A DNA stretch of 64,000 bases. It comes from Candidatus Rariloculaceae bacterium (lineage in GTDB: Bacteria > Pseudomonadota > Gammaproteobacteria > Steroidobacterales > Rariloculaceae). The stretch is from the NCBI GenBank assembly GCA_965204155.1, contig OZ241971.1:2560100-2624099 (forward strand), read 5' to 3'. This document shows, in pieces, positions 13,605-48,458 of the stretch. Each line of letters begins with the position of its first letter. The stretch's first letter is position 1. The translations under genes and the position numbers were made by a program. Under the pieces are notes generated by a model that did no database searches, had not been told where the DNA came from, and worked only from the letters and a program-made list of their open reading frames with translations.

Positions 13605-14213
13605 TCATGTTTCCCGCAGCATCGAGAAGTGCACGCCATGGGGCCGCGCGGCATGGGCGAGCCAGCGGCACAGGTAGTCGGAAAAGCTTCTGCCGGCGAT
13701 GACGGTGTAGCTGGGCGCGTCGTCAGCAACGGCCAGCACCACTACTGCCTTCGCCAGGCCCGTGCGCGCGCATTGTCCGGGGCCGAATTCCCGGGGGTGC
13801 AGGTCCAGAGCGCAACCCTTGGCCAGCACCGTGCGCGCGTCGCTGCCGCTGACGCGTAGCGCCACGTGCCCGCCGCTGACGTCGTTGACCGCCGCGTGGT
13901 ACCCGGCGAGGGCGTCGGAGAGTTCGCTGGCAAGACCTGCGGCGCGGTCTGTGCCGGACTCGATCAGCCACTCGTCCGGGCCGAGCCAGTAGACGCGGTG
14001 GTCTCCGCCGGTGAATGTATTCCGAGTCAGCGGGATGGGCTGATCCAGTACCTGCGCAGCGGCATTGAAGGTTTCATCTCGACGCTTGTCGAGCCTTAGG
14101 TTGAAAAACCCGCGGCCGGACACCACGCGGACGTCGACGCGAGCCCGGGCTGCGGATTCCGCGGAGGCGAGAAAGGGTTCCAGGCCGTGGCGGCGTGCAG
14201 TCGAGTCAGACAT
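13605..14213 (-). CDS. soxG: Sarcosine oxidase gamma subunit
   Basis: 202 aa at the last position of the soxBDAG order. Sequence pattern is typical of SoxG (…RVYWLGPDEWL…). Confidence 0.85.
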   Translation of the reverse strand: MSDSTARRHGLEPFLASAESAARARVDVRVVSGRGFFNLRLDKRRDETFNAAAQVLDQPIPLTRNTFTGGDHRVYWLGPDEWLIESGTDRAAGLASELSDALAGYHAAVNDVSGGHVALRVSGSDARTVLAKGCALDLHPREFGPGQCARTGLAKAVVVLAVADDAPSYTVIAGRSFSDYLCRWLAHAARPHGVHFSMLRET

Positions 14214-14299
14214 TGTTGCGCCTTCCGCGGTTATTCATATCAGACATGTTGGCGCCACTTTCCGCGCTCGTTCGTTTCAGACATGTTGGCGCCGCCCCT
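14206..14299 (-). repeat. Triplicated soxA-stop/soxG-start junction forming two chained mini-ORFs
   Basis: TCAGACATGTTGGCGCC occurs exactly at 14240..14256 and 14277..14293, with a 3-mismatch copy at 14206..14222. Mini-ORFs are 14240..14284 (MSETNERGKWRQHV) and 14206..14247 (MSDMNNRGRRNNV). Each junction is an ATGTCTGA start/stop overlap. Confidence 0.85.
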
Positions 14300-17200
14300 T
14301 GGGATCGTAGAAGGTCGGCGCAACGATTTGCACCGGCAGCGACTCGCGCTCCGGCAGCGCCGCGTAGACGGTTTCGCCCTTGCGCTTCCGCCCGCCGGCG
14401 ACCAGGGCCAGGGCGATCGGGTGGCCGAGGCAAGCGCTGCGGTAGCTGGAGGTGACGTGACCGCACATGGGTACGGGCGCCGGCTTGCCCGTTTCCTCGA
14501 TGAGCTGGGTTCCCTCGGGTAGTACCGTCCGATCGTCGGAAGACAGGAGACCGACCAACTGTTTGCGGTCTTCCCGCAGGCAATCCGGGCGCCGCAGGGA
14601 ACGCTTGCCGAGAAAGTCCTTCTCCTTCGACAGCAGCCAGTTCATGCCCAGGTCCACGGGCGTGACGGATCCGTCGGTGTCCTGGCCGACGATGATGAAG
14701 CCCTTTTCGGCGCGCAGCACGTGCATGGTTTCGGTCCCGTAGGGCGCGATATCGAATGCCCGGCCGGCCTCGATGACCCGCTCCCACATGGCCAGCGCGC
14801 GGTTGCTGTCGATGTTGATCTCGAACGCCAGTTCACCGGAGAAGCTCACCCGGAACAGGGTGACGCGCATGCCCGCCAGGACGGCGGGCCTGACGGTCAT
14901 GAACGGGAAACTCTCCTTGTCCAGCGGAATGTCGCAGCCGAGCGTTTCCAGCAACCTGCGGCTGTTGGGCCCGACCACTGCGATGGTCGAATAGTGTTCA
15001 GTCAGCGATGTCAGGTAGACCTCCAGCTCCGGCCACTCGGTCTGCAGCCAGCATTCCATCCAGCTCAGCACGTTCGCCGCACCGCCGGTGGTGGTGGTCA
15101 GGTAGAAACGCTGCTCGCCCAGGCGCGCCATCACGCCGTCGTCCATGAGCATGCCGTCCTCGCCCAGCATGATTCCGTAGGCGCAGCGCCCGACCTTCAT
15201 CCGGCCGACGTTGTGGGTGTAGATGCGTTCCAGGAACTCGACGACGTCGGGCCCGCGGGCGTCGATCTTGCCCAGGGTGGAGGCGTCCATCACGCCGACG
15301 GAGTTGCGTACCGCCAGGCATTCCCGCGCCACTGCCCCGTGCAAGTCCTCGCCGTCCCGCGGGAAGTACCATGGCCGGTGCCACTGGCTCACCACTTCCA
15401 TGGGTGCGCCGGCGGCCTCGTGCCACTCGTGGATCGCGGTCTTGCGCACGGGATCGTAGAGTTCGCCGACGCTTTCGCCAGCGCCGACCCCGAAACTCAC
15501 CGGCGTATAGGCCGGGCGGAACGTCGTCGTGCCCACCTCGGGAATGGTCTTGCCGAGTATGTCGGCCAGCACGGCCATGCCATTGATGTTGGCGAGTTTG
15601 CCCTGGTCGGTGCCGAAGCCCAGCGCCGTGTAGCGCTTGACGTGCTCGACGTTGCGATAGCCTTCGCGCACGGCAAGGCGGACGTCGGCGACGCTGGTGT
15701 CGTTCTGGAAGTCGATGAATTGCTTCGGGCAGCGATCCGCGTCCTTCGCCGCCGGTACGCGCCAAAGGGCCTCGATCGGGTTCTCCGCGACGCCGGACGT
15801 GATTGGCGGTTCGATGGCCGGGGGTCTCAGCCCGAGTTTCGACACCGCTACCGTGCCGGCCCGCACGCCGTCGGCCAGACACTCGCCGAGGGACTGCCTG
15901 CCGTTGCCCGCGCCGGCCGAATCGTGGGCCTGGCGTGCTTGCGCGGGGACGAAGCCGAGCTGCGCATCGTCCCAGGCCAACCGCCCGCCCGCCTGGGAGT
16001 GCAGGTGAACGGCCGGGCTCCAGCCTCCGGACACGGCCACCAGATCGCAGTCGATGCGGATCGAAGGGGTCACGCTTGCCCAACTGTCGCCGCTCCACCT
16101 GGCGATGCTGGCGCCCCTGACACGACTCCGGCCTAGCACATCGGTTATCACGTGTCCTGCCAATACCGGAATCCCCAAGTCTCGCACCCGGCCGCCGAGA
16201 TCCCCACCGCCGCCGGGGCGGCTGTCGACGATGGCGGCCACCTCCGCGCCGGCATCGGCCAGGCTCATCGCTGTTCGATAGGCGGAGTCGTTGTTGGTAA
16301 AGACCACCGCACGGCGGCCCGGCAGGACGGCATACCGTTGGATATAGGCCGAGACGGCCGACGCCTGCATCACGCCGGGCCGGTCGTTGTTGCAGAACAC
16401 CAGCGGCCGCTCGAAGCTGCCCTGGGCCAGCACCACCTGCCTGGCCCGCACGCGCCAGAGCCGCCCTGCCACGGTTTCGCCGCTCCCGCGCCCTGCCGCG
16501 GCGTCGCCGCGATCCTGGTGCGAATCCTCGGCGCCGGCGTGCGCAATGCCCACGTGGCTGGAACAGCGCTCCGCAATCGTCAGGAAGTTGTGGTCGTGGT
16601 AGCCGAACACGGTGCTGCGGGGCAGCAGGATGCAATCCGCGTGGTCACCAAGTTCAGCCACTACTCCGGCGGCCCACTCCGCGCCTGGCTTGCCGTCGAT
16701 GCTGTCGGTGCAAGCCAGCAGGCTGCCGCCAAACTCGTTCTGTTCGTCGGCGAGAATCACGCGGGCGCCGGACCTCGCCGCCGCCAGCGCCGCCATCAGG
16801 CCGGCCGGTCCGCCCCCGGCCACCAGCACTTCGCAGTGCGCGTTCATGTGCTCGTAGGTGCCGGGATCGGGCTCCTCCGGCGCCCGGCCGAAGCCGGCCG
16901 ACGCGCGGATCAGGCGCTCGTAGAGCTTCCACAACGAGCGCGGGTACATGAACGTCTTGTAGTAGAAACCGGCGGCCAGCATTCGTCCAAAGACGTCATT
17001 CATTGCACCGATATCCAAGCGCACCGTGGGCCAGCCCTTCGTCGAGCGCGCCACCAGCCCGTCGTGGAGTTCCACCTGCGTCGCCAGGAGGTTCGGCTGC
17101 GCGGCGGCGCCTTCGCCCACCTGCATGATCGCGTTGGGTTCTTCCGCGCCGCTGCCGACGATCCCGCGCGGGCGGCGCAACTTGAAGCTGCGCCCCACCA

Positions 17201-17345
17201 GGGACACGCCGTTGGCGATCAGCGCAGAAGCCAGCGTGTCGCCTGCGAATCCCTCGCAAGTCTTGCCGTTGAAGGAGAAGGACAAGGGCTGCGCCCGGTC
17301 GATCCGCCCTCCCTGCTGCAAACGATTCGGCTGCGCGACCGCCAT
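14277..17345 (-). CDS. soxA: Sarcosine oxidase alpha subunit
   Basis: Conserved N-terminus MAVAQPNRLQQGGRIDR…FNGKTCEGFAGDTLASALIANGV begins at Met52 of track ORF 14277..17498. About 1022 aa with a GcvT-like C-terminal domain. Confidence 0.9.
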   Translation of the reverse strand: MAVAQPNRLQQGGRIDRAQPLSFSFNGKTCEGFAGDTLASALIANGVSLVGRSFKLRRPRGIVGSGAEEPNAIMQVGEGAAAQPNLLATQVELHDGLVARSTKGWPTVRLDIGAMNDVFGRMLAAGFYYKTFMYPRSLWKLYERLIRASAGFGRAPEEPDPGTYEHMNAHCEVLVAGGGPAGLMAALAAARSGARVILADEQNEFGGSLLACTDSIDGKPGAEWAAGVVAELGDHADCILLPRSTVFGYHDHNFLTIAERCSSHVGIAHAGAEDSHQDRGDAAAGRGSGETVAGRLWRVRARQVVLAQGSFERPLVFCNNDRPGVMQASAVSAYIQRYAVLPGRRAVVFTNNDSAYRTAMSLADAGAEVAAIVDSRPGGGGDLGGRVRDLGIPVLAGHVITDVLGRSRVRGASIARWSGDSWASVTPSIRIDCDLVAVSGGWSPAVHLHSQAGGRLAWDDAQLGFVPAQARQAHDSAGAGNGRQSLGECLADGVRAGTVAVSKLGLRPPAIEPPITSGVAENPIEALWRVPAAKDADRCPKQFIDFQNDTSVADVRLAVREGYRNVEHVKRYTALGFGTDQGKLANINGMAVLADILGKTIPEVGTTTFRPAYTPVSFGVGAGESVGELYDPVRKTAIHEWHEAAGAPMEVVSQWHRPWYFPRDGEDLHGAVARECLAVRNSVGVMDASTLGKIDARGPDVVEFLERIYTHNVGRMKVGRCAYGIMLGEDGMLMDDGVMARLGEQRFYLTTTTGGAANVLSWMECWLQTEWPELEVYLTSLTEHYSTIAVVGPNSRRLLETLGCDIPLDKESFPFMTVRPAVLAGMRVTLFRVSFSGELAFEINIDSNRALAMWERVIEAGRAFDIAPYGTETMHVLRAEKGFIIVGQDTDGSVTPVDLGMNWLLSKEKDFLGKRSLRRPDCLREDRKQLVGLLSSDDRTVLPEGTQLIEETGKPAPVPMCGHVTSSYRSACLGHPIALALVAGGRKRKGETVYAALPERESLPVQIVAPTFYDPKGRRQHV

Positions 17346-17347
17346 GG

Positions 17348-17611
17348 TCAGCCACCGTCCAGCGTGTAACTGCGCTCGATGCGGTAGGTGACCGTATCGC
17401 GCTCCACGCCGAACCATCGCCGGCAGCCGTGGGCGTGATTCCACAATTCCCGGTGGGCGCCGCGCGGGTTGGCGCGGTTGAACAGGTAGTCGGCCCATTC
17501 CGCGTCGCTCAGCGCGTCCGGGTCCGGCGGCCGCACGATGCCCGCCTCACCACCGTAGCTGAACTCGGTCTCGGCCCGGGACCCGCACCATGGGCATTCG
17601 ATCAAAAGCAT
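17348..17611 (-). CDS. soxD: Sarcosine oxidase delta subunit
   Basis: 87 aa with the MLLIECPWCG…HGC zinc-site pattern characteristic of SoxD. Confidence 0.9.
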   Translation of the reverse strand: MLLIECPWCGSRAETEFSYGGEAGIVRPPDPDALSDAEWADYLFNRANPRGAHRELWNHAHGCRRWFGVERDTVTYRIERSYTLDGG

Positions 17612-17630
17612 GGCATTGAACCCGTGAGCG

Positions 17631-18881
17631 CTAGTGCGCCACCGCCGCGGCGCCGTGCTCGTCGATCAGCGCGCCTGTAGCAAACCGCTCCAGGCTGAAG
17701 GGCGCGTTGAGTTCGTGGGGTTCGTCGTGGGCCATGGTGTGCGCGAACACCCAGCCGGAGCCGGGTGTCGACTTGAAGCCGCCGGTGCCCCATCCGCAGT
17801 TGAAGTAAAGGCCCTGTACGGGCGTCTTCGAGACGATCGGACATGCATCCGGGCAGACATCGACGATGCCGCCCCAGAGCCTGAGCATGCGCACCCGGCT
17901 GAACACCGGGAACAGCTCGATGATCGCCTGCATCGTGTGTTCGATGATGTGGAAGCTGCCCCGCTGGCCGTAGCCGTTGTACGCGTCGATGCCGGCGCCG
18001 ATCACCAGTTCGCCCTTGTCGGACTGGCTGATGTAGCCGTGCACCGCCCCGGACATGACCACCGTGTCCAGCACCGGCTTGATGGGCTCGGAGACGAACG
18101 CCTGCAGCGGATGGCTCTCGATGGGCAGGCGCAGGTCCGCCATCCTGGCCAGCACGCTGGCGTGGCCGGCCACCACGACGCCGATGCGGTTCGAGGCGAT
18201 GGGGCCGCGCGTCGTCTGCACGCCCACGGCCCTGCCGCCCCGGACATCGATACCCGTGACCTCGCACTGTTCGATGATGTCGACGCCGAGCGCGTCGGCG
18301 GCCCGCGCGAAGCCCCAGGCGACGGCATCGTGACGCGCCACCCCCGCGCGGCGCTGCAGCGACGCGCCGAGGATCGGATAACGCGCATCCGGTGAAATAT
18401 TGAGGTGCGGAATCGCCTTGCCGAGTTCGGCCGCGCTGACGACCTCGGCGTCAATGCCGTTGAGCCGGTTGGCGTTGACGCGCCGCTCGATGTCCCGCAT
18501 GTCCTGCAGCGAGTGAGCCAGGTTGTAGACGCCGCGCTGGCTGAACATGACGTTGTAATTCAGATCCTGGCTCAGTCCCTCCCACAGCTTCATGGATTTC
18601 TCGTACAGCAGCGAGGATTCGGTCCACAGGTAGTTGGAGCGCACGATGGTGGTATTGCGCCCGGTGTTGCCCCCGCCGATCCAGCCCTTCTCCAGCACCG
18701 CGACGTTGCGGATGCCGTGATTCCTGGCCAGGTAGTAGGCGGTCGCAAGCCCGTGGCCGCCGCCGCCGACGATGATGGCGTCGTAGCTCTTCTCCGGTTC
18801 AGGACTGCGCCACGCCTCGCGCCAGTTCCTGTTGTAACTGAGCGCATTGCGCAGCAGCCCGAGCGCCGAGTATCGCTTCAT
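17631..18881 (-). CDS. soxB: Sarcosine oxidase beta subunit
   Basis: Starts at Met56 of the track ORF ([20 protein letters not shown]…[20 protein letters not shown]); 416 aa. Confidence 0.9.
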
Positions 18882-18930
18882 GATCTCATGCCCGGCCTGC
18901 TCCCGGCCTGCCGAAAACGCCAGGGGAGGC

Positions 18931-19076: not shown

Positions 19077-21533
19077 TCACCCATTGGCCCCATTGACATC
19101 GCGCAGCCGTTCATTGGCCGCATCGAACGGGCTGTCGGGAATCACCGTCGCCCGAAAGGTCCTGTCGAGAATCTCGATGCCGACCTCCGTGCCCGGAACC
19201 GCCAGGTCGGGAGGCAGCATCCCCAGCGCCAGCGACTTGCCGGTGCGGAAACCGTAGTTGCCGCTGGTGGCCCGGCCGACCGTCTCACCGTCCATGAGCA
19301 ACGCATTGTTGCCGAGCGCGTCGGCGTCTTCCACGTCGTGAACCTCCAGCGTGACCAGCAGGTTCTTCAGTCCGGCCTCCCTGGACGCCAGCAGGGCGTC
19401 GCGTCCCAGGAAGTCGCCCTTGTCCGGCCTGACGAACCGGTCCAGCGTCGACTCGAAGGCCGAGTACTCGATGGACAGTTCCGTGCCCACCAGCCGGTAG
19501 GACTTCTCCATGCGCATCGAGTCCATGGCGCGAATGCCGAACGGCGCCAGCCCCAGGTCCTCGCCGGCCTCGAACAACGTGTCGAAGATGTGGTTCTGGT
19601 ACTCCATGGGGTGGTGCAGTTCCCAGCCCAGTTCGCCGACGAAGTTCACCCGCATGGCGTTGACCGGCGCCGAGCCAACCACGATGTCGCGGGCGGTCAG
19701 CCAGCGGAAGGCCTGGTTCGACAGGTCGGCGCCCGTCACCCGCGACAACAGCTCCCTCGCCCTGGGGCCAGCCAGGACCAGCACGCCGACCGCGCCCGTC
19801 AGGGGCGTAAACTGCACCGAGCCGTCCTGCGGCATGTATTTGCGCAGATAGTCGTGATCCAGCCGCTGGAAGGCGCCGGCCGACACCAGGTAGAACGAAT
19901 CGCCCGGCTCGCGGCGGATCGTGAACTCCGAATGCACGCCGCCGCTACGGTTCAGCGCGTGTGCCAGACACATGCGCCCAACCTGCTTCGGCACGCTGTT
20001 GGCCACGAACCAGTTGAGGAAGTCTTCCGCTCCGGGGCCGGACACGCGGCACTTGGCGAACGCGGTCATGTCCTGCAGTCCGACGTTGTTCGTGACGTTT
20101 TCGACCTCACGGCGAACCGCCTCGAACCAGCGCGAGCGGCGGAACGACCAGTCGTCTTCCTGAGGCATGTTGTCAGTCGCAAAGAAATTGGGCCGCTCCC
20201 AGCCGAACTTCTGCCCGAATACGGCTCCACGCGCCTTCATGCGCTCGTAGCAGGGCGCTGTGCGCAACGGACGTGCGGCGGGGCGTTCCTCGTCCGGGTA
20301 GTGGATGATGAAGACGTGCGCGTAGGCTTCTTCGGTCTTTTTGACCAGGTAGTCCTTCGTCGCGTATTCGCCGAAACGGCGCGGCTCGACACCCAGCATG
20401 TCGATGGTGGGCTCCCCTTCGACGATCCACTCGGCCAGTTGCCAGCCGGCCCCGCCTGCGGCCGTGATCCCGAAGCTGTGCCCCTCGGACAGCCAGAAAT
20501 TGTCGATACCCCAGGCCGGCCCGATGATCGGGTTGCCGTCGGGCGTGTAGGCGATGGCGCCGTTGTAGACTTCCTTGATGCCTACTTCGGCGAAGGCCGG
20601 CACCCGGTTCATCGCTGCCTCGATATGCGGCATGAGGCGGTCGATGTCCTCCTGGAACAACTCGTATTCGGCCTGCGGGTCCGGGCCGTCGACGTAGCAG
20701 CAGGGCGCGTCCTTCTCGTACGGGCCGAGGATGAAGCCGCTGTTTTCCTCGCGCAGGTACCACGAGCCGTCCGATTCGCGCAGCACGCCGAGTTCGGGCA
20801 GGCCCTGGAGTTTGCGCGCCTGAAGATCGGGATGCGGTTCGGTGACGATGTACTGGTGCTCCACCGGCATCACGGGGACATCGAGTCCCACCATCTCGCC
20901 GGTCTGGCGGGCGTAATTCCCGGTGGCCGAGACCACGTGATCGCAGGTGATGCGGCCCTTGTCCGTGTGCACCACCCAGCCACCGGAGGTCGCCTGGGTG
21001 ATGCCGAGAACCGCGGTCTTGCGGTAGATCTCCGCACCGCGCCCCCGGGCGCCGGCGGCCAGCGCCTGGGTCAGGTCGGCGGGCTGGATGTAGCCGTCCT
21101 CGGGATGGAAGATGCCGCCGACGAGTCCGTCAGTATTGCACAGCGGCCACAGTTCTCCGATCTCGGCCGGGGTCAGGAAGCGTACATCCACCCCGATGGT
21201 CTTCGCCGTGGCCGCGTACTGGTGGTACTCATCCATACGGTCCCGGTTCATGGCGAGCCGCAGGTTGCCGACCCGGCTGAACCCGACCCGCCGTCCAGTC
21301 TCTTTCTCCAGCTCCTGATACAGGTTGACGGAGTACTTGTGGACCTGGCCCACCGAGTAGCTCATGTTGAACAGCGGCAGCAGGCCCGCGGCGTGCCAGG
21401 TGGAGCCCGAAGTCAGCTCGCCCTTCTCGACCAGCACCACCTCGTCCCCCCAGCCCTTCTTCGCCAGGTGATACAGCGTGCTGACGCCGACCACGCCGCC
21501 GCCGACGACCACGACTCTTGCCCGTGTTTTCAT
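19077..21533 (-). CDS. Dimethylglycine/sarcosine dehydrogenase-family flavoprotein (FAD domain + GcvT-like THF domain), paralogue 1
   Basis: 818 aa; VVVVGGGVVG dinucleotide fold; LTSGSTWHAAG (covalent-FAD His context); C-terminal aminomethyltransferase-like domain. ATGA overlap with the upstream gene. Confidence 0.85.
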   Translation of the reverse strand: MKTRARVVVVGGGVVGVSTLYHLAKKGWGDEVVLVEKGELTSGSTWHAAGLLPLFNMSYSVGQVHKYSVNLYQELEKETGRRVGFSRVGNLRLAMNRDRMDEYHQYAATAKTIGVDVRFLTPAEIGELWPLCNTDGLVGGIFHPEDGYIQPADLTQALAAGARGRGAEIYRKTAVLGITQATSGGWVVHTDKGRITCDHVVSATGNYARQTGEMVGLDVPVMPVEHQYIVTEPHPDLQARKLQGLPELGVLRESDGSWYLREENSGFILGPYEKDAPCCYVDGPDPQAEYELFQEDIDRLMPHIEAAMNRVPAFAEVGIKEVYNGAIAYTPDGNPIIGPAWGIDNFWLSEGHSFGITAAGGAGWQLAEWIVEGEPTIDMLGVEPRRFGEYATKDYLVKKTEEAYAHVFIIHYPDEERPAARPLRTAPCYERMKARGAVFGQKFGWERPNFFATDNMPQEDDWSFRRSRWFEAVRREVENVTNNVGLQDMTAFAKCRVSGPGAEDFLNWFVANSVPKQVGRMCLAHALNRSGGVHSEFTIRREPGDSFYLVSAGAFQRLDHDYLRKYMPQDGSVQFTPLTGAVGVLVLAGPRARELLSRVTGADLSNQAFRWLTARDIVVGSAPVNAMRVNFVGELGWELHHPMEYQNHIFDTLFEAGEDLGLAPFGIRAMDSMRMEKSYRLVGTELSIEYSAFESTLDRFVRPDKGDFLGRDALLASREAGLKNLLVTLEVHDVEDADALGNNALLMDGETVGRATSGNYGFRTGKSLALGMLPPDLAVPGTEVGIEILDRTFRATVIPDSPFDAANERLRDVNGANG

Positions 21534-23545: not shown

Positions 23546-23644
23546 GCCGATTGCTCCGGTCCGGTCCGCGCCGCGGTTCGGTCCGCCGCAGTTTGCCGCG
23601 CCGGCGCGCGTTTCACGGCGTTGTCGCACGCGGTCCGGCACATG

Positions 23645-29414: not shown

Positions 29415-29572
29415 GCGCGGCCTCCTGCTGCGGGATAACGGCTGAGCCCTGAAAGCGAAAGCCAGAGTTGTGCATTCGCAGTCTGAGCCAGAATCCCCAC
29501 TTCTGCATCGCCGGATGCGACATGGAGCCAATCGCAGGCGACATTGCGGCACCCGGGGCTATTGTTGGCGAC

Positions 29573-29693
29573 ACGCAACAGATTTTTGCGTGATTGCAGG
29601 AGCCAGGCGCCCGCTGTCCAAATTTGGCGCTCCGATGTCGCATATCTTTCATTGAACGTCGCATTCCGATGTTATTCTCGGAACGTCGGAATT
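29573..29693. promoter_or_regulatory. Repeat-rich part of the divergent mttB / TonB-receptor control region
   Basis: ACGCAA-N7-TTGCGT (~29573..29591); CCAAATTTGG (29618..29627); three GA[AT][CG]GTCG[CG]A-like repeats at 29634, 29654 and 29681; TTCCGA-N8-TCGGAA (29664..29683). Confidence 0.3.
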
Positions 29694-38448: not shown

Positions 38449-40863
38449 ATGGAAAACCAGGCCCGCATAGTCATCGTCGGCGGCGGCATCATGGGCGTCG
38501 GCCTGCTGTACCACCTGGCCGCGGAGGGGTGCAGCGATGTCCTGCTGATCGAGAAGGGCGAGCTGACGTCGGGCTCGACCTGGCATGCGGCCGGTCAGTG
38601 CCCCAACCTGGTCGGCAACTACAATCTCGCCAAGATCCACGAATACAGCATCGCCCTGTACGGGAAGCTGGAACAGCTCACCGGCCAGGCCGTCGGCTGG
38701 CACGGTTGCGGCAGCGTCCGCTTCGCCCTGAACGAGCGGGACCTTGACTGGTTCCGCTATCTGCGCGGGATCGCCACCGAAGTCGGTTATCACATGGAGA
38801 TCGTCGATGTGCCGCAGATCGCCAGGCTGAATCCCTTCGTCTCGACCGAAGGCGTGCTGGCCGGGGCCTGGACCCGCAATGACGGACATGCCGACCCCTT
38901 CGGGCTGACCCAGGCCATGGCCAGGGGCGCGCGCGAAATGGGCGCCAGAATCATGCGGCGCAACCGGGTGACCGGCATCAACGCCCGTCCGGGCGGGGAA
39001 TGGGAAGTGGTGACGGAACAGGGTACGGTCATCGCCGAAACGGTGGTCAACGCTGCCGGCTGCTTCGCCCGGCAGGTGGCGCAGATGGTGGGAGCGGACC
39101 TGCCCATCTTCAATGTCCAGCATCACTACCTGGTGTCCGGCCCGGTGCCGGAATTTGCAGAAAGAAGCGTCGAACTCCCCGTAACCCGCGACCCCTGGGC
39201 TTCCTCGTACCTTCGCCAAGAGCAGGAGTCCGGGCTGATCGGCATCTACGAGGGCGACGGCATCACCGAAGCCTGGCAACCGGGCGGACTGCCCCAGTGG
39301 GAATCCGACAGCGAACTGTTTACCGACGATCTGGAGCGCCTGATGCCCTGGCTGGGGCGAGCCATGGAGCGCATGCCGATCTTCGAGCCGGCGGGCATCA
39401 AGCGCATTGTCAACGGGGCCATCTCCCACAGCCCCGACGGGCTGCCGCTGCTCGGGCCGGTGGCGGGGTTGCGCAATTTCTGGCTCTGCTGCGGCACGTC
39501 TTTCGGCATTGCCCAGGGCGCCGGTTCCGGCAAGTACCTGGCCCAGTGGATCCTGCACGGCGACTCCGAAATCAACATGACCGGGTTCGATCCGCGGCGG
39601 TTCGGCGTATTTGCCGATGACGCCTTCATGCGGGCCAGGGGCCGCCAGGACTACGGCATGACCTACGCCACGGTGATGCCCGGAGAAGAACTGCCGGCCG
39701 GCCGCCAGTGCAGGACCAGCCCCCTGCACGACAAGCTCGGTGCGCAGGGCTGCGTATACACGGAAACCTTCGGCTGGGAGCGGCCCAAGTGGTTTTCGCC
39801 CGACGGCCGGGAGGAGCAGTACAGCTTCCGCCACAACAATGTTTTCGAAGTCGTGCGCGGAGAATGTCTGACGGTGCGCGAGCGTGTCGGTCTGCTGGAC
39901 CTTTCCGGGTTCGCGAAATACGACGTTACAGGTCCCGATGCGGAGACGATGCTGGATCGGCTGTGCGCCAATCGGTTGCCGAAACGTGGGCGGATCGCGC
40001 TCACGCATCTGCTGTCGGAGGGCGGGCGCATCGGCGCGGAAGCGACCGTCACGCGTCTCGGCGACGAAGCCTTTTACGTGCTTTCCGCCGCCGGCGCCGA
40101 ACTGCGCGATCTGGACCACCTGCGGCAAGGCCGTCTCCCGGAAGAGCAGGTCAGCATCGACAATGTCACGGACCGCCGCGGTGTGCTGGTGCTGGCGGGG
40201 CCGCACGCCCGGGCCGTGCTGGCACGGGTGACGGACACGTCCCTTGAGAGCAGCGACTTCCCCTGGCTCAGTGGCCGGGAAATCCATGTCGCCGGGATGC
40301 CGGTGCGGGCACTGCGGGTGAACTACGTGGGCGAACTGGGGTGGGAACTGCACCCGGCGATGGAGTACATGGAGCCGCTGTACGACGCGCTGATGGAGGC
40401 TGGCGCGGACTTCGGCATCGGTAATTTCGGCCTCTACGCGGTCAACAGCCTCAGGCTGGAAAAGGCCTACCGAAGCTGGGGAGCGGAGCTGACCAACGAA
40501 GTCACAATGATCGACGCCGCCATGGAGCGGTTCATCAGGTTCGACAAGGGCGACTTCATCGGCCGGGAAGCGACCCTGCGGCAGCGGGACCGCACCTTGC
40601 AACTGATCTACTTCAGCCTGGACGCCGGCGATGCGGACGTTCAGGGTGGCGAGCCCATCTTCGCCGGCGAGCGCTGCGTGGGCGTAACCACGACGGGCGG
40701 TTACGGACACTTCGTCCGCAAGAGCCTCGGCTTCGGCTATGTTCCGCCGCCGCTGGCCGTTCCGGGAACGGAGTTGACGGTCGACGTGCTCGGGCAACTG
40801 CGCAAGGTGACGCTGCGCACCGATCCGGTCTATGACCCGGCCAACTCCCGATTGCGCGTCTGA
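38449..40863 (+). CDS. Dimethylglycine/sarcosine dehydrogenase-family flavoprotein, paralogue 2
   Basis: 804 aa; IVIVGGGIMG; LTSGSTWHAAG; GcvT-like C-terminal domain. Confidence 0.85.
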   Translation: MENQARIVIVGGGIMGVGLLYHLAAEGCSDVLLIEKGELTSGSTWHAAGQCPNLVGNYNLAKIHEYSIALYGKLEQLTGQAVGWHGCGSVRFALNERDLDWFRYLRGIATEVGYHMEIVDVPQIARLNPFVSTEGVLAGAWTRNDGHADPFGLTQAMARGAREMGARIMRRNRVTGINARPGGEWEVVTEQGTVIAETVVNAAGCFARQVAQMVGADLPIFNVQHHYLVSGPVPEFAERSVELPVTRDPWASSYLRQEQESGLIGIYEGDGITEAWQPGGLPQWESDSELFTDDLERLMPWLGRAMERMPIFEPAGIKRIVNGAISHSPDGLPLLGPVAGLRNFWLCCGTSFGIAQGAGSGKYLAQWILHGDSEINMTGFDPRRFGVFADDAFMRARGRQDYGMTYATVMPGEELPAGRQCRTSPLHDKLGAQGCVYTETFGWERPKWFSPDGREEQYSFRHNNVFEVVRGECLTVRERVGLLDLSGFAKYDVTGPDAETMLDRLCANRLPKRGRIALTHLLSEGGRIGAEATVTRLGDEAFYVLSAAGAELRDLDHLRQGRLPEEQVSIDNVTDRRGVLVLAGPHARAVLARVTDTSLESSDFPWLSGREIHVAGMPVRALRVNYVGELGWELHPAMEYMEPLYDALMEAGADFGIGNFGLYAVNSLRLEKAYRSWGAELTNEVTMIDAAMERFIRFDKGDFIGREATLRQRDRTLQLIYFSLDAGDADVQGGEPIFAGERCVGVTTTGGYGHFVRKSLGFGYVPPPLAVPGTELTVDVLGQLRKVTLRTDPVYDPANSRLRV

Positions 40864-40958
40864 CCGCCGATGATGACATGGCCAACCACCGGTTGCGTGC
40901 CTGACTGCCGATGACGATACGGCCCGAGACTGCTGCCCAGCCCGAGACGGCGGCCCGG
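40861..40958 (+). repeat. Duplicated gene junction with relay mini-ORF, plus 18-bp tandem repeats
   Basis: TGACCGCCGATGATGACATGG (40861..40881) versus TGACTGCCGATGACGATACGG (40902..40922), 17/21 identical. Mini-ORF 40870..40914 (MMTWPTTGCVPDCR) ends in an ATGA overlap with the 40911 start. CCCGAGAC[TG]GC[TG]GCCC[AG]G tandem at 40923..40958. Confidence 0.75.
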
Positions 40959-43403
40959 CCCGAGCGCTCTGCCGACCTGCCGCGACGCGCCAGCGTGGTC
41001 GTGATCGGCGGCGGCGTGATCGGGTGCTCGGTCGCCTACCATCTGGCGAGAGCTGGCGTCCCGGACGTGGCGCTGCTGGAGCGCAGGCAGCTCACCTCGG
41101 GTACCACCTGGCACGCGGCGGGATTGGTGGGCCAGCTTCGCACGTCCATAAACATGACGGAACTGGCGCGCTACACCAGCGAACTCTACCTGCGCCTGGA
41201 GGCCGAAACCGGCCAGGCGACCGGCTACCGGCGCTGCGGTTCCTTCTCGCTGGCCACCAACGAAGAGCGGTTCGAGGAGTTGCGGCGCAGCGCCTCGATG
41301 GCGAAGGTCTTCGGGCTCGAAGTGGAGGTGGTCACGCCTGCGGCGATCAAGGCCCGGGTTCCGCTGCTGCATACCGGAGACGTGCTTGGGGGCATCCACA
41401 TTCCTTCCGACGGCTACGCCAACGCGGTGGACGTGACCAACGCGCTGGCGAAAGGCGCCACCGCCGCCGGTGCGCGCGTCTTTCAGAATACGCCGGTCAC
41501 ATCCATTCTCACCTCGGGCAGCAGCGTAACCGGCGTGGTCACCGATCAGGGCGAGATCCGTGCCGACTGCGTCGTGCTCTGCGCAGGCATGTGGACCCGG
41601 GAACTGGCCGCGACGGTGGGCATCAACGTGCCCCTGCACGCCTGCGAGCACTACTACGCCCTGTTCGCATCGGTGGAAGGGCTGGACGAGAACTTCCCGG
41701 TGGTGCGCGACTACGACGCCTGCGCCTACTACAAGTACGACGCGGGCAAGCTGCTGCTCGGTGCGTTCGAGCCCAATGCCCGCCCCTGGGCCACCGACGG
41801 CATCCCCGAGGATTTCTGTTTCGACGAGATCGACGGCAGCCTGGAGCACTTCGAACCAATCCTGGAACAGGCCCTGGCGCGCATGCCGGCGCTGGAATCC
41901 GCGGGGCTGGAGACGTTCTTCTGCGGCCCGGAGAGCTTTACGCCGGATGTCCGCTACCACATCGGCCAGGCGCCGGAGCTGGACAATTGTTTCGTGGCGG
42001 CGGGGCTGAATTCCATCGGCCTGCAATCCGCCGGCGGCATCGGCCGGGTCATCTCGGACTGGATCCGGCACGGGTATCCGCCGTCAGACCTCTGGGAGGT
42101 CGACGTGCGCCGCAATCAGCCCTTCCAGCGCAACCGGAAGTACCTGCGCGAGCGGGTTTCCGAGAGCCTCGGCCTGCTCTACGCCACCCATTACCCCTAT
42201 CGCCAGTACGACACCGCCCGGGGCGTTCGCAAGTCGCCGCTGCATGATCGGTTGAAGTCCGCCGGGGCCTGTCACGGCGAAGTGGCGGGTTGGGAACGGC
42301 CCAACTGGTATGCGCCGGAGCCGGGCCTGGCGCGCTACGAGTACAGTTATGGACGGCAGAACTGGTTCGAGTATTCCGCGGCGGAACACCGGGCGGTGCG
42401 CGAGCGGGCGGGGCTGTTCGACCTGTCTTCGTTCGCCAAGTTCAGGCTAGAGGGCCGTGACGCCGCCCGGGTGCTGAACACCATCTGCGCGAACGAAATT
42501 GATGTGCCTCCCGGCCGCATCGTCTATACCCAATGGCTGAACGGGAGGGGCGGCATCGAAGCGGATCTGACGGTGACCCGGCTCACCGAAGACTGCTACC
42601 TGGTTGTGACCGCCGCCGCCACCGAAGTCCGGGACTTCAACTGGCTGCAACGGCACATTCCGGCCGACGCCCGCTGCGTGCTGACCAATGTGACCTCGGC
42701 CATGGGCGTGATTTCCATCATGGGACCGAACGCACGGGCGCTGCTGCAATCGTTAAGCCCGAACGATGTCTCCAACGAGGCCTTTCCGTTCGCCCACAGC
42801 CGGGAAATCGAACTCGGCTACGCGCTGGTGCGCGCGGCCCGGATCACCTACGTAGGCGAACTCGGCTGGGAACTCTACATCCCCACCGAGTTCACGGCCG
42901 GCGTCTACGACACCCTCGTCCAGGCGGGCGCATCGTTCGGCCTGGCCCACGCCGGCTATCACGCGCTTGATTCGCTGCGCATCGAAAAGGCCTATCGGCA
43001 CTGGGGCCACGACATCACCGACGAGGACACGCCGCTGGAAGCGGGCCTGGGCTTCGCCGTGAAGTTCGACAAGCCGGGCGGGTTCATCGGCCGCGACGCA
43101 CTGTTGAAGGAAAAGCAGGCAGGGTCGGCAAAGCGCCTGTTGCAGTTCCGGCTGCTGGACCCGCAGCCGCTGATCTACCACAACGAACCCATCTGGCGCG
43201 ACGACATCCTGGTCGGACACATCACCTCAGGCGCCTACGGCCACACCCTCGGCGGCGCCATCGGGCTGGGCTACGTCGATACGGGCAAGGCGCCGGACCC
43301 GGCCGAGGGCGGATTCAGCATCGAAGTGGCCGGGGAGCGGGTGCCGGCGGAGGTATCGTCAAGGCCGATGTACGACCCGGCGAGCCAGCGCATCCGCTGC
43401 TGA
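40911..43403 (+). CDS. Dimethylglycine/sarcosine dehydrogenase-family flavoprotein, paralogue 3
   Basis: 830 aa; VVVIGGGVIG; LTSGTTWHAAG; GcvT-like C-terminal domain. Confidence 0.85.
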   Translation: MTIRPETAAQPETAARPERSADLPRRASVVVIGGGVIGCSVAYHLARAGVPDVALLERRQLTSGTTWHAAGLVGQLRTSINMTELARYTSELYLRLEAETGQATGYRRCGSFSLATNEERFEELRRSASMAKVFGLEVEVVTPAAIKARVPLLHTGDVLGGIHIPSDGYANAVDVTNALAKGATAAGARVFQNTPVTSILTSGSSVTGVVTDQGEIRADCVVLCAGMWTRELAATVGINVPLHACEHYYALFASVEGLDENFPVVRDYDACAYYKYDAGKLLLGAFEPNARPWATDGIPEDFCFDEIDGSLEHFEPILEQALARMPALESAGLETFFCGPESFTPDVRYHIGQAPELDNCFVAAGLNSIGLQSAGGIGRVISDWIRHGYPPSDLWEVDVRRNQPFQRNRKYLRERVSESLGLLYATHYPYRQYDTARGVRKSPLHDRLKSAGACHGEVAGWERPNWYAPEPGLARYEYSYGRQNWFEYSAAEHRAVRERAGLFDLSSFAKFRLEGRDAARVLNTICANEIDVPPGRIVYTQWLNGRGGIEADLTVTRLTEDCYLVVTAAATEVRDFNWLQRHIPADARCVLTNVTSAMGVISIMGPNARALLQSLSPNDVSNEAFPFAHSREIELGYALVRAARITYVGELGWELYIPTEFTAGVYDTLVQAGASFGLAHAGYHALDSLRIEKAYRHWGHDITDEDTPLEAGLGFAVKFDKPGGFIGRDALLKEKQAGSAKRLLQFRLLDPQPLIYHNEPIWRDDILVGHITSGAYGHTLGGAIGLGYVDTGKAPDPAEGGFSIEVAGERVPAEVSSRPMYDPASQRIRC

Positions 43404-43475: not shown

Positions 43476-44825
43476 CTACGCAACCGCGGCCATGGCCCGC
43501 TCGAGAAGGGTCAGTGCCTCGTCGATCTCCGAGCTGCTGACGTTGAGCGGCGGCGAGATACGGATCACGTTGTTGTAAGTGCCGCCGCGGCCCAGCAGGA
43601 GGCCGCGTTCGCGGGCGGAGTCCAGCAGCGCCTGGGTCAGTTCGGGGGCGGGCGTGCGGTCGCCGGCGGTTTCGTCGGCCACCAGTTCGATTGCCTGCAT
43701 GAGACCTCTGCCGCGCACATCGCCGATGGGGGCGGGGAACCGGCGCTGGATGCGCAGCAGGCCGTCGCGCAGGCGTTCGCCCTGCCGTCCGGCGTGGTCC
43801 GCCAGGTTCTCCCGCTCGACGATATCGATGACCGTGTTGGCCGCGGCGCAGCTCACCGGGTTGCCGCCGAAGGTGGAGATGGTGGACTTGTGCAGCGAGT
43901 CCGCCACCGGTGCGGTGGCCACCAGGGCCCCGAGCGGCAGGCCGTTGGCGATGCCCTTGGCCATGGTCATCATTTCCGGTTCCACGCCGTGATGCTCGAT
44001 GCCCCACATGCGCCCGGTGCGGCCGAAGCCGGTCTGCACTTCATCCGCGATGAACACGCCGCCGTACTTGCGCACGATCTCCGCCACGATGGCGAAGTAT
44101 TCCTCCGGCGGAGTGATGAAGCCGCCGACGCCCTGGATCGGTTCCACCAGCATGCCCGCCACCTGTCCGGACGTGGCGGTCCGGATCAACTCCTCCACGT
44201 CATGGGCGCAGGCCACGCCGCATTTCGGGTAGGTCAGCTTGAGCGGACAGCGATAACAGTAGGGCGACAGCGCATGGCGCACGACACTGGCCCGGTCGCC
44301 GGCGCCGCGCCAGGCGGCATTGCCCGTGAGCCCCTGGGCGAGCTGGGTGCGGCCCGAATAGCCGTGGCGCAGGGCGATGATCTCGGTGTTGCCGGTGTAG
44401 CTCTGCGCCATCATGATCGCAGCCTCGTCGGCTTCGCTGCCGGAAGCGGTGAAGAAGCACTTCTGCAGCGCACCGGGCGTGATGCGGGCCAGGCGCTCGG
44501 CCAGTTCGCCCATGGGCAGGGTCGGGTAGAGCGTGGATATGTGGGAGAGCCGATGCACCTGGGCGATGACGGCCTGGTTCACCTCTTCGTTTGCGTGCCC
44601 GAGTGATACCGTGAGTATACCGCCGAAGAAATCCAGGTAGGTGCGTTCGTCGAGGTCGGTGACGCGGCCTCCGCGTCCGTCGGTCACGACCAAGGGCTCG
44701 GTGTGGAGATTCTTTACCTGGGGGAAGATGTAACGTTCGTATTGCCGCGCGACATCCGCGGTTGTATGAACCGGCCCGATTTTCGTGTTGCGGTCGGCCT
44801 TGGCGTCCGCCGGCTGATCTTTCAT
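43476..44825 (-). CDS. Class-III PLP-dependent aminotransferase
   Basis: Real gene is the last 449 codons (MKDQPADAK…) of track ORF 43476..45725, with GGAGGAG upstream. Motifs ASGSEADEAA, DEVQTGFGRTG, MTMAKGIANG. Confidence 0.85.
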   Translation of the reverse strand: MKDQPADAKADRNTKIGPVHTTADVARQYERYIFPQVKNLHTEPLVVTDGRGGRVTDLDERTYLDFFGGILTVSLGHANEEVNQAVIAQVHRLSHISTLYPTLPMGELAERLARITPGALQKCFFTASGSEADEAAIMMAQSYTGNTEIIALRHGYSGRTQLAQGLTGNAAWRGAGDRASVVRHALSPYCYRCPLKLTYPKCGVACAHDVEELIRTATSGQVAGMLVEPIQGVGGFITPPEEYFAIVAEIVRKYGGVFIADEVQTGFGRTGRMWGIEHHGVEPEMMTMAKGIANGLPLGALVATAPVADSLHKSTISTFGGNPVSCAAANTVIDIVERENLADHAGRQGERLRDGLLRIQRRFPAPIGDVRGRGLMQAIELVADETAGDRTPAPELTQALLDSARERGLLLGRGGTYNNVIRISPPLNVSSSEIDEALTLLERAMAAVA

Positions 44826-44995: not shown

Positions 44996-46669
44996 CTAGT
45001 ACAACCCCCCGATCAACCCTTCCGAATTCACGTGGACATCCTGTGCGGAGGGTTTCCTCGGCAGGCCCGGCATGGTCATGATGGCTCCGCACACCGGTAC
45101 GATGAAGCCGGCGCCCGCGGACAGGCGGACCTCGCGGATTTCCACGACGTGGCCCGTGGGTGCGCCCAGCAGGGTGGGATCGGTCGAGAAGCTGTACTGC
45201 GTCTTGGCCATGCAGATCGGGAAGTGTCCGTAGCCGCTGTCCTGGAGGCGGGAGAATTCGTTGCGCACGCTCATGGGCGCGACGATGTCCCGGGCCCCGT
45301 AGATCGTCCGCGCGATGCGGCGGGTTTTCTCCCAGATGTCCAGGTCGTCGTCGTAGAGCAGCCTGAAGTCGGCGGCCGCCGAATCGGCCAGTTCCGCCAC
45401 GTGCTCCGCCAGTTCCGTGGCGCCGGCGCCGCCTTCCATCCAGTGACGGCACTCGATGGCGGTGACCCCCGATCGTTCGCAGTAGCCCTCGACGGCGCGG
45501 ACCTCGGCGTCGCTGTCTGTGGGGTGGCGGTTGATCGCCACCACCGCCGGCACGCCGAACTGCCTCAGGATGGCGAGATGGTGGCCCAGGTTGACGCAAC
45601 CCTTCGCCACCGATCCGCTGTCCTCGCGCAGCAGGTCGTCCCTGGGCACGCCGCCGTGCATCTTCAGTGCCTTGATGGTCGCCACCAGCACCACGGCATC
45701 GGGGGCCAGCCCCCCGGTACGGCACTTGATGTCGAAGAACTTCTCGGCGCCCAGGTCCGAGCCGAAGCCGGCTTCGGTCACCACGTAATCGGCCCGCTTC
45801 AGGGCGGTTCGGGTGGCAATGACCGAGTTGCAGCCGTGGGCGATGTTCGCGAACGGCCCGCCGTGGATGAACGCGGGGTTGTTCTCCAGCGTCTGCACGA
45901 GATTCGGGGCGAAGGCATCCCGGAGCAGCGCCGTCATCGCCCCGTGCGCGTGGAGGTCCCGCGCGGTCACGGGCTCGCGGCCGCGGGTGTAGCCCACCAC
46001 GATGCTGCCCAGCCGCTGTTCCAGTTCCGCCAGATTCTTCGCCAGGCAGAAGATTGCCATGACTTCCGACGTGCTGGTGATATCGAAACCGGCTTCCCTG
46101 GGCACGCCGTGGGCGGTTCCGCCCAGGCCGATCGTGATCTGGCGCAACGCGCGATCGTTCATGTCCACCACCCGCCGCCAGGTGATTCGCCGCGGATCCA
46201 GGACCGGATTGCCGCCCCAGTGAATGTGGTTGTCCACCAGGGCCGCCAGCAGGTTATGGGCGGCGGCGATGGCGTGAAAATCACCGGTGAAGTGCAGGTT
46301 GATGTCGGTCATCGGCACGACCTGCGCGTAGCCGCCGCCCGCGGCTCCGCCCTTCATGCCGAAACACGGGCCGAGACTCGGTTCGCGCAGGCAGATCGCC
46401 GTCTTTCTGCCGATGCGGTTGAGGGCGTCCCCCAGGCCGATCGTCGTCGTGGTCTTGCCTTCGCCGGCCGGTGTGGGCGACACCGCCGTCATCAGGATCA
46501 GCTTGCCGGTGGTGCCCGGCCGGGATTCCTCTATGGCGGCGAAGTCGACCTTGGCCTTGGCGTGCCCGTAGGGAATCGTGAAGTCGGCGATGCCGAGCTT
46601 GTCAGCGACTTCGCGTATCGGCTGCATGCTGGCCGCACGGGCGATTTCGATATCATTCTTCTGCGACAT
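44996..46669 (-). CDS. fhs: Formate--tetrahydrofolate ligase
   Basis: 557 aa; [16 protein letters not shown]-loop; strongly conserved FTHFS sequence throughout. Confidence 0.95.
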
Positions 46670-46752: not shown

Positions 46753-47700
46753 CTAGCTGCCCAGCGCTTCGGTCAGTTCCGGCACGGCAGTGAACAGGTC
46801 CGCCACCAGGCCGATATCGGCGACTTCGAACAGCGGCGCTTCCGCGTCCGTGTTGATGGCCACGATAACACCCGCGTCCTTGATCCCGGTGAGGTGCTGG
46901 ATGGCTCCCGAGATGCCCACGGCGATGTAGAGTTGCGGCGCGATGATCTTGCCGGTCTGGCCGACCTGCATGTCGTTGCCCACGAATCCTGAATCCACCG
47001 CGGCGCGCGAAGCGCCCACCGCGGCGCCGAGCGCATCCGCCAGGCGGTAGATGATTTCGAAGTTCTCCTTGCTGCCCACGCCGCGTCCGCCGGAAACGAC
47101 CCGACTGGCAGTCTGCAGATCCGGCCTGCCACCGCCGGAATCGCTGCGAACTTCGACGAACCGCGTATGGGCCGGCAGCTCGGCATCGACGGCGCGCTCG
47201 CTGATCGGAGCGTTGCCTGTGGGTTCGGCCGCCTGGTACGAGGCGGTTCTGACCGTGGCGACCACGGGACGGTCCTGCGGCGCCTCCACCGTGAGAATGG
47301 CGTTGCCGGCGTAGAAGGGACGCCTAAACCGCCAGGCGCTTTCGGCACTCATGATGTCGCTGAGCTGACCCACGCCCTGGAGCGCTGCCACCCGCGGCAT
47401 GAGGTCCTTGCCGAAGGTGGTGGACGGGCCGAACACGTGGGTGTAGTCGCCCGCGAGTTCCGAGACCTGGGGCGCGGCCACAGCCGCCAGGGCCGACTCG
47501 TTCGCCGGGTGATCGACCCGGATGACACCCGTCACGCCCGCAAGCGCCGCGGCCTGCGCCGCCACGGCGGCGCCGTCGCCGGCAAGCACCGCGATGTCGA
47601 TGGCCGAAGTTTCGAAGGTCCGGGCGCAGGACACGCACTTCGCCGTGCTGGCATTGAGCGTCCGCCCGTCATGTTCGGCGACGATCAGCACCCGGGCCAT
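46753..47700 (-). CDS. etfA: Electron transfer flavoprotein alpha subunit
   Basis: 315 aa; C-terminal FAD-binding signature …[21 protein letters not shown]…. Confidence 0.9.
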
Positions 47701-48458
47701 CAGATCAGCTCCTTCTCGCGAAGCGCCTGCACCAACTCTTCCACGTTGCTCACCCTGACGCCCCTGGGCCGCTGGGCCGGCGGCTCGATCCCCAACACCT
47801 GAAACTGCGTTTCAGGCTCCACGTCCAACTCGGCCAGCGTAACCGTCTCCAGGGGTTTCTTCTTGGCCTTCAGGATGTCGGGCAACTTGGTATAGCGCGG
47901 TTCGTTCAGGCGCAGGTCCGTCGTCACCACGGCCGGCAGATCGACTTCGATGACCTCAAGCCCCGCGTCCACTTCCCGCATCGCCGTCGCCGTGCCGCCA
48001 TTGAAGCGGAGATGGGAGGCAAAGGTCGCCTGCGGGCGGCCCCAGAGGGCGGCCAGCATCTGTCCGGTTTGATTGTTGTCGCCGTCGATGGCCTGCTTGC
48101 CCATGATCACCAACTGCGTCTCTTCCCGGTGGACCAGGGCCAACAGCGTCCGGGCGACGGTCAGGGGTTCGAGTTCCTGGCCGGTTTCGACCAGAATGGC
48201 CCGGTCGGCGCCCATGGCCAGTCCGCCGCGCAGTTGTTGAGTGCAGGCCTGCCCGCCGATGGAGGCCACGGCGATTTCTTCGGCCTCGCCCCGTTCCCTG
48301 ATTCGGAGCGCTTCCTCAAGGGCGATTTCATCAAAGGGGTTGATGCTCATCTTGACGCCGTCCAGCGCCATTCCCGAGCCGTCGGGTTTCACGCGCACAC
48401 GGACGTTGGCGTCCACGACGCGTTTCAGCGGGACGAGAATGGTTTTGATGAGCGCCAT
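47700..48458 (-). CDS. etfB: Electron transfer flavoprotein beta subunit
   Basis: 252 aa; VPLKRVVD…MSINPFDEIALEEALR pattern; 1-nt overlap with etfA. Confidence 0.9.
   Translation of the reverse strand: MALIKTILVPLKRVVDANVRVRVKPDGSGMALDGVKMSINPFDEIALEEALRIRERGEAEEIAVASIGGQACTQQLRGGLAMGADRAILVETGQELEPLTVARTLLALVHREETQLVIMGKQAIDGDNNQTGQMLAALWGRPQATFASHLRFNGGTATAMREVDAGLEVIEVDLPAVVTTDLRLNEPRYTKLPDILKAKKKPLETVTLAELDVEPETQFQVLGIEPPAQRPRGVRVSNVEELVQALREKELI

Follow-up and report, generated by a model that had tools for sequence, protein, structure and literature searches.

Bases 2,560,100–2,624,099 of the genome of a Candidatus Rariloculaceae bacterium (GenBank assembly GCA_965204155.1, contig OZ241971.1; a single contig of 5.03 Mb, ~65% G+C and 96% complete) were analysed as one window of 64,000 nucleotides. 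A 36-kb island in this window holds nearly all genes for removing the three methyl groups of glycine betaine (GB). Considering its gene content, operon coupling, residue conservation, operators and synteny, together with the absence of rival enzymes, we propose that the island serves GB catabolism by the aerobic MtgBCD route, with a probability of roughly 80%. The route itself was already published in 2025 (PMC12478193), and the island is a very complete example of this known pathway. New details are the predicted GbdR/CdhR-type operators, a conserved MttB2 triad and the probable salvage of corrinoids. Positions given below are those of the window, and those preceded by C1 are those of the contig.

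Genes were called by third-position G+C, and their proteins were then scanned against Pfam and NCBIfam. The core of the island is a nine-gene operon on the minus strand, from mttB1 (ATG at 29414) to DMGDH1 (stop at 19077), in which all junctions overlap or lie ≤6 nt apart. It begins with mttB1 (27834–29414; PF06253, 754 bits), encoding a non-pyrrolysine MttB-family methyltransferase that is the MtgB-type candidate, followed by the corrinoid protein gene mtgC (27109–27834; B12-binding_2 and B12-binding domains with a DxHxxG motif), a DUF1638 gene (26487–27116; PF07796, 96.7 bits) and a gene for a small PF13769 (‘Virulence_fact’) protein (26123–26518; 73 bits). Next come a metV-like gene for the small subunit of methylene-tetrahydrofolate (methylene-THF) reductase (25616–26116; PF12225, 85.6 bits), a metF2-type methylene-THF reductase gene (24556–25626; PF02219, 121 bits) and an mtgD/mtgA-like gene for a pterin-binding methylcorrinoid:THF methyltransferase (23645–24559; PF00809, 103 bits; NF005719, 365 bits against a cut-off of 259), whose start, the ATG at 24559, is preceded by GGAGG. 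The last two genes encode a RamA/RACo reductive corrinoid activase with 2Fe-2S and ASKHA parts (21530–23641; RACo_C_ter 295, Raco_middle 170 and RACo_linker 90 bits, Fer2; AcsV model 367 bits) and DMGDH1, a flavin adenine dinucleotide/THF demethylase (19077–21533; DAO, FAO_M, GCV_T and GCV_T_C domains). The start of mtgC overlaps the stop of mttB1 by 1 nt, metV and metF overlap by 11 nt, and DMGDH1 overlaps the RACo stop by 4 nt.

The soxBDAG genes for heterotetrameric sarcosine oxidase (13605–18881, minus strand) lie 195 nt downstream of DMGDH1 on the same strand, and no terminator signal above background was found between mttB1 and soxBDAG. All four subunit genes are present, as soxB (17631–18881), soxD (17348–17611), soxA (14277–17345) and soxG (13605–14213); the alpha and beta subunits exceed their NCBIfam cut-offs (TIGR01373, 729 bits against 529; TIGR01372, 1375 bits against 1164), and SoxD and SoxG were identified by Pfam. 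The ~930 bp beyond soxG (12676–13604) have a lower G+C and show no coding signal in any frame. A second soxB/soxA pair, 57% and 43% identical to the island copies, is found at C1:4953208–4957820.

An earlier note on this DNA had listed two MttB paralogues, a corrinoid protein, three DMGDH-family genes, soxBDAG, MetF/MetV, fhs, etfBA and a BCCT carrier, and every one of these genes is confirmed by the Pfam and NCBIfam matches. The same list omitted RACo/RamA, the pterin-binding methyltransferase, DUF1638, PF13769, the TonB receptor, a TPR-sulfotransferase and a class-III aminotransferase. The first four of these genes all belong to the mttB1 operon, and their presence strengthens the case that the note had made, namely an MttB/corrinoid first demethylation followed by two flavin-dependent steps. 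That order of steps is also supported by its agreement with the genetics and proteomics of Ruegeria pomeroyi (PMC12478193).

In the aerobic R. pomeroyi DSS-3, knockouts of mtgC and mtgD abolish the use of GB (Mausz et al., PNAS 2025, PMC12478193). Growth on N-osmolytes induces two PF06253 proteins that are MtgB homologues, RamA, DUF1638 and MetF2, the last being the most strongly induced protein, and in marine Alpha-, Gamma- and Deltaproteobacteria the MtgBCD genes are often co-located with those for the later demethylations (PMC12478193). DUF1638 and RamA-like proteins have also been tied genetically to B12 reactivation by fitness data in Phaeobacter inhibens (PMC5764234), and a role for DUF1638 is indicated by the R. 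pomeroyi proteomics as well (PMC12478193). The island shares with the R. pomeroyi system the PF06253 methyltransferase, the corrinoid protein, the pterin-binding methyltransferase, RamA, DUF1638 and a second MetF, followed by DMGDH, sarcosine-demethylating enzymes and a BCCT carrier. In contrast to the scattered genes of R. pomeroyi, those described here form one island. Further differences are the classical metF-metH pair of this genome, the constant MetV-like and PF13769 members, the presence of the electron transfer flavoprotein (ETF) and Fhs genes in the island, and the absence of corrin-ring markers. The words ‘virulence’ and ‘MetV’ do not occur in PMC12478193, and neither of two papers searched for a role of the PF13769 protein gives one.

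All parts of the published system occur here, each of them once, i.e. the MTTB gene of the operon, MtgC, MtgD, RamA/RACo, DUF1638 and MetF2. The best NCBIfam matches of MtgC are the GB-specific MtgC models (186 and 165 bits, both under the cut-off), and MtgC is the sole separate corrinoid protein of the genome, the domain in MetH apart. There are two MTHFR genes in the genome, the operon copy with 121 bits and a copy beside metH with 330 bits. The latter forms a canonical metF-metH pair at C1:2650358–2653833, 26 kb past the window, so that the MetF/MetV of the island would be free for the catabolic oxidation of methyl-THF.

The substrate-site residues of MtgB are partly conserved in MttB1. MttB1 aligns with 745 bits to PDB 4YYC, which we take to be a Sinorhizobium protein, and over its full length with 437 bits to the Desulfitobacterium hafniense MtgB (PDB 2QNE/9YCE). 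The GB site of D. hafniense MtgB is formed by Y97, R312, H348 and F356, and its arginine is kept across all characterised quaternary-amine homologues of MttB (PMC13080624). Once the MtgB numbering offset had been confirmed on the 9YCE alignment as printed, three of the four residues could be located in MttB1: its Tyr, Arg and His are Y188, R402 and H438 when counted along the scanned 572-aa frame (27834–29552), or 46 lower in the 526-aa gene. The D. hafniense MtgB/MtgC/MtgA system resembles the one in the island in keeping Tyr97, Arg312 and His348, in its three-component logic and in its need for a RamA activase. It differs at Phe356, which is Gly in MttB1, and in MtgC, which falls far short of the NCBIfam MtgC cut-offs (186 bits against 370). 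Moreover, the anaerobe stops at dimethylglycine, whereas the flavin enzymes encoded here continue to glycine.

Enzymes that would carry out the first two demethylations by another route were not found. No protein of the genome reaches the cut-off of the GbcA equivalog model (NF058607, 670 bits); the best hit, at C1:287453, scores 303 bits, and a search of 21 genomes from the genus and order (this one and 20 relatives) gave no protein that reaches the cut-off. MTTB genes are present in seven of 12 same-genus genomes. DgcA has a size of ~680 aa. The only Oxidored_FMN (OYE) hit of the genome is a 405-aa open frame, too short for that protein, and thus no DgcA-like protein was found. Both results answer the genome search for gbcAB and dgcAB that the earlier note had proposed. 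Its statement that the window holds no GbcAB-like Rieske or DgcAB-like open reading frames also stands, as no Rieske-oxygenase or OYE gene was found within the window and all genome-wide matches lie elsewhere. Compared to the GbcAB/DgcAB/SoxBDAG route of Pseudomonas aeruginosa, the island has in common soxBDAG, a GbdR-family regulator and, as predicted here, direct-repeat operators of 21-bp period, but there is no GbcA equivalog or DgcA-like protein, the first step being assigned to the corrinoid enzymes and the second to a DMGDH-family enzyme.

The gene order of the operon is well conserved. The closest MttB relatives, with 65–88% identity, are from marine Gammaproteobacteria of sediment and sponge habitats, including Candidatus Rariloculus, Candidatus Foliamicus, Woeseiaceae, Halieaceae, Porticoccaceae and the isolate HTCC2080; apart from this isolate, the genomes are mostly metagenome-assembled and some are single-cell genomes. 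The window proteins were compared by tblastn to 80 related loci, and presence was counted over the 48 loci that are ≥19 kb long. Most of them, HTCC2080 included, have the order mttB1-mtgC-DUF1638-PF13769-(metV-metF)-mtgD-RACo-DMGDH1-soxB, with the core present in 33–42 of the 48. Among the individual genes, RACo is found in 42 loci, PF13769 in 40, DUF1638 in 35 and the metV-like gene in 28; the PF13769 gene is invariably flanked by DUF1638 on one side and by metV or mtgD on the other. DMGDH1 is ~90% identical in the closest loci, and Fhs adjoins the corrinoid operon in 12/48.

We infer the identity of the substrate, the directions of flux, the electron acceptor of MetF/MetV and the pairing of the regulator with its operators. 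In the proposed pathway, GB would be imported by the BCCT carrier (34457–36040, plus strand; Pfam), for which the best specific match is a glycine betaine uptake model (479 bits, cut-off 650), TIGR00842 being matched above its cut-off with 454 bits. MttB1 would transfer a methyl group of GB to the Co(I) of MtgC, yielding dimethylglycine, and MtgD would pass the methyl group from MtgC to THF. The resulting 5-methyl-THF could then be oxidised to 5,10-methylene-THF by MetF2/MetV. Cob(II)alamin formed by accidental oxidation would be re-reduced by RamA/RACo, probably with the help of DUF1638. A DMGDH-family enzyme would convert dimethylglycine to sarcosine, with electrons passing by way of ETF to ETF:quinone oxidoreductase and the methyl carbon to methylene-THF, and SoxBDAG would convert sarcosine to glycine, with electrons passing to O2 and the methyl carbon again to methylene-THF. 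From methylene-THF, FolD followed by Fhs or PurU could release the carbon as formate, to be oxidised by formate dehydrogenase; serine is an alternative exit. A GbdR-family activator would act on the direct-repeat operators of the divergent mttB1/receptor promoter.

The outlets of this pathway lie partly inside and partly outside the island. Genes for Fhs (44996–46669), EtfA (46753–47700) and EtfB (47700–48458), all on the minus strand and identified by Pfam, belong to the island. ETF:quinone oxidoreductase, FolD, PurU and the alpha subunit of formate dehydrogenase are present outside the window, and the presence of the first two agrees with what the earlier note had suggested looking for. Its view that the locus carries its own C1 and electron outlets holds insofar as EtfAB and Fhs are in the island; these are, however, the sole copies in the genome, which makes them shared housekeeping outlets and not dedicated duplicates. 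The proposed exit of C1 units through MetF/MetV and Fhs matches R. pomeroyi in the oxidation of methyl-THF by a MetF paralogue, but the direction of Fhs cannot be read from the sequence. Heterotetrameric sarcosine oxidase is known to pass electrons to O2 and not to ETF, which qualifies the reading of the note. All three DMGDH paralogues match the ETF-dependent mammalian DMGDH over the full length (DMGDH1 617 bits, against the human 5L46; DMGDH2 651 bits; DMGDH3 520 bits).

The island contains a second methyltransferase gene, mttB2 (36076–37617, minus strand; PF06253, 372 bits), encoding a divergent non-pyrrolysine member of the MttB family. It is the only other MTTB gene of the genome, and both are uninterrupted frames. 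MttB2 shares only 26% identity with MttB1, and at the positions of Y97, R312, H348 and F356 it has G/G/E/L, so that none of the four GB residues is kept. Its length, 513 aa, is the same as that of its homologues, for which the search returned generic names only. MttB2 resembles the Methanosarcina barkeri MttB (PDB 7XCL; 176 bits), with which it shares a xSDAKxPDxQAGxE stretch after the pyrrolysine position, but it differs in having no UAG codon and in Met372, which aligns with Pyl334. Eight orthologues, with identities as low as 58%, all carry the same five-residue signature, G/G/E/L plus Met. The orthologue in a single-cell genome of Woeseiaceae (L038:15703–17250, minus strand) has one in-frame stop, which may be a sequencing error or mark a pseudogene. 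It should be mentioned that the Rfam family PYLIS_3 is matched within mttB2 at 36480–36579 (minus strand; 40.4 bits against a gathering score of 38). We rejected a pyrrolysine recoding signal as its explanation, because the match begins at the Met372 codon and UAG is absent from mttB2. The alignment of Met372 with Pyl334 indicates that the match reflects homology of the coding sequence.

At higher coordinates than mttB2 lie DMGDH2 (38449–40863) and DMGDH3 (40911–43403), both on the plus strand with DAO, FAO_M, GCV_T and GCV_T_C domains, and a gene for a class-III aminotransferase (43476–44825, minus strand; Pfam). In all seven related loci with an MttB2 orthologue, DMGDH2 is adjacent, DMGDH3 is present wherever the locus extends far enough, and the mttB1 operon lies alongside. 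The absence of the GB residues from MttB2, taken with its constant DMGDH partners, suggests a second demethylation module. We tentatively consider that the island may encode two parallel three-step N-demethylation cascades with a common corrinoid/activase/THF-transferase/MetFV core, MttB1, DMGDH1 and SoxBDAG acting on GB and MttB2, DMGDH2 and DMGDH3, perhaps with the aminotransferase, acting on another trimethylammonium compound bound without the Arg/His carboxylate clamp. This second cascade, whose likelihood we place somewhat short of even, would borrow the single MtgC, MtgD, RamA and MetFV, in keeping with the one corrinoid protein of the genome; several MttB paralogues per MtgC are indeed expected from the R. 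pomeroyi work (PMC12478193). Further points in its favour are the replaced Arg among the G/G/E/L residues, the invariant signature with Met at the pyrrolysine position, the conservation of the triad in 7/7 loci, always beside the mttB1 operon, and the match of one corrinoid-dependent and two flavin enzymes to three methyl groups. The predicted-complex score of MttB2 with MtgC (0.03, against a mark of 0.32) speaks neither for nor against binding. On the other hand, the aminotransferase gene lacks conserved synteny, the sequence names no candidate substrate, and DMGDH2 is the paralogue nearest to mammalian DMGDH. A DMGDH and sarcosine dehydrogenase pair serving the catabolism of GB itself would look identical.

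Such a pair is what the next explanation assumes, which we regard as possible yet rather doubtful. DMGDH2 and DMGDH3 would be ETF-linked dimethylglycine and sarcosine dehydrogenases, giving an O2-independent alternative to DMGDH1 plus sarcosine oxidase, with MttB2 as an accessory. The full-length matches of all three paralogues to the ETF-dependent mammalian enzyme point in this direction, as does the identity of DMGDH2 to DMGDH3, which at 36% is typical of mammalian DMGDH compared to SARDH. One related locus (L061) has the DMGDH2/3 orthologues next to its mttB1 operon, and DMGDH1 and sox are absent within the sequence covered; the sediment and sponge habitats of the relatives would fit as well. 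This explanation leaves a conserved MttB2 unlike a GB enzyme without a role. If it were true, the route from GB to glycine could use any respiratory acceptor. The sequence alone does not decide between a second cascade and an ETF-only branch for dimethylglycine and sarcosine.

Two further explanations concern the mttB1 operon itself. MttB1, MtgC and MtgD could serve mainly as a split methionine synthase, with a stand-alone S-methyl_trans protein (56306–57232), encoded 6.5 kb past the regulator, as its MtgE. This protein could by itself be an MtgE-type homocysteine module, and it scores 89 bits with the BHMT model NF005718 (cut-off 338). It is encoded outside the operon and shows no synteny in the relatives, with matches in three of the 48 loci at 26% identity. 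The classical metF-metH pair should make a methionine-synthase role dispensable, and the operon is joined to the DMGDH and sox genes; we thus consider this explanation unlikely. It is more improbable still that GB is first demethylated by the GbcA-like Rieske protein at C1:287453 or by a BHMT-type reaction, with MttB1 acting on another betaine, e.g. proline betaine or carnitine: a GbcA-family oxygenase does exist (303 bits) and MttB1 departs from MtgB at F356, but that Rieske protein is far under its 670-bit cut-off and, in the examined region C1:276000–295000, has no GbcB-type reductase beside it, following directly after a class-III aminotransferase and lying near MFS, aldehyde dehydrogenase, enoyl-CoA hydratase and PurU genes, the BHMT score is low, and mttB1 is operon-linked to DMGDH, sox and a GbdR-type operator. 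The region C1:276000–295000 with its Rieske oxygenase may be a separate amine-catabolic locus.

The regulator of the proposed GB unit is encoded at 48769–49743 (minus strand) and combines a DJ-1/PfpI domain with an AraC helix-turn-helix (DJ-1_PfpI, HTH_18 and HTH_AraC). The earlier note had correctly recognised its class but had placed it within a stretch that ends 311 bp before the gene. With 438 bits against the GbdR equivalog model NF052371 (cut-off 480), it is a close relative of GbdR and is not classed as an equivalog. In the 310-bp divergent promoter between mttB1 and the TonB-receptor gene, there are two GTCGC-N16-GTCGC direct repeats with a 21-bp period, one facing mttB1 (29517–29542) and one facing the receptor (29637–29662), each with one mismatch to the 8-mer half-site A[T/C]GTCGCA. 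The whole window contains four such matches, compared to 0.89 expected, including the two in this promoter. The mttB1-facing site is found upstream of mttB1 in 25/79 related loci, at a density of 0.40/kb versus 0.018/kb elsewhere (22-fold). CdhR, GbdR and SouR sites have a GGTCGC half-site and a 15-bp spacer (PMC5806209), which the half-site and spacing of the promoter repeats resemble, and the repeats are predicted to be operators. A scan for perfect matches to the P. aeruginosa half-sites G[GC][TC]CGC found intragenic pairs only. A 14-mer shared by six island intergenic regions, obtained in a de novo search, was rejected as it was no better than that from shuffled sequence.

Several points weigh against the assignment of the island to GB catabolism. 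Phe356 of MtgB is replaced by Gly in MttB1, with a Trp four residues upstream, and to our knowledge none of the proteobacterial MttB1-type enzymes has been assayed biochemically. The search for operators gave no convincing site in front of etfB, gbdR or DMGDH2; the closest candidate, with four mismatches, is at 38287. The missing sites at etfB and DMGDH2 weaken the case for co-regulation of the whole island. CbiC/CobH and CbiJ/CobK were not found in the 96%-complete single-contig genome; with these two markers of corrin-ring biosynthesis absent, the route would depend on salvaged corrinoid. Furthermore, the assignment of MtgB in R. pomeroyi rests on proteomics (PMC12478193).

The organism probably salvages corrinoids rather than making the corrin ring. 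CobS is present, and a single cobalamin riboswitch precedes a TonB receptor outside the island (C1:910946–911653 and C1:924554–924741 are the coordinates for this observation). Such salvage would make both betaine catabolism and MetH dependent on an outside supply, a dependence that has been discussed for B12-auxotrophic roseobacters (PMC12478193). The TonB-dependent receptor of the island (29723–32320, plus strand; Pfam) was considered as a B12 importer, which is unlikely, as the only cobalamin riboswitch of the genome precedes another receptor and none is found in the window. In NCBIfam, the island receptor matches siderophore- and haem-type receptor models, all of them far below the cut-offs, and no B12-receptor model.

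The receptor is followed on the plus strand by a TPR-sulfotransferase gene (32545–34422; Pfam) and the BCCT gene, and this trio has the same position in the closest relatives (L014, L017 and L021). A paralogous pair of TonB receptor and TPR-sulfotransferase, with 35% and 51% identity, is located at C1:2248708–2255585, so that the two genes are a recurring module in this genome.

GB is among the most abundant marine osmolytes and nitrogen/carbon currencies. The substrate of MttB2, DMGDH2 and DMGDH3 is the only question of wider interest that the island raises. The island could be used as an annotation template, defined by the order of its core operon, the constant PF13769 and MetV-like members and the GbdR-type operator. 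It would also tie the use of betaine to corrinoid salvage in an organism that is apparently unable to make the corrin ring.

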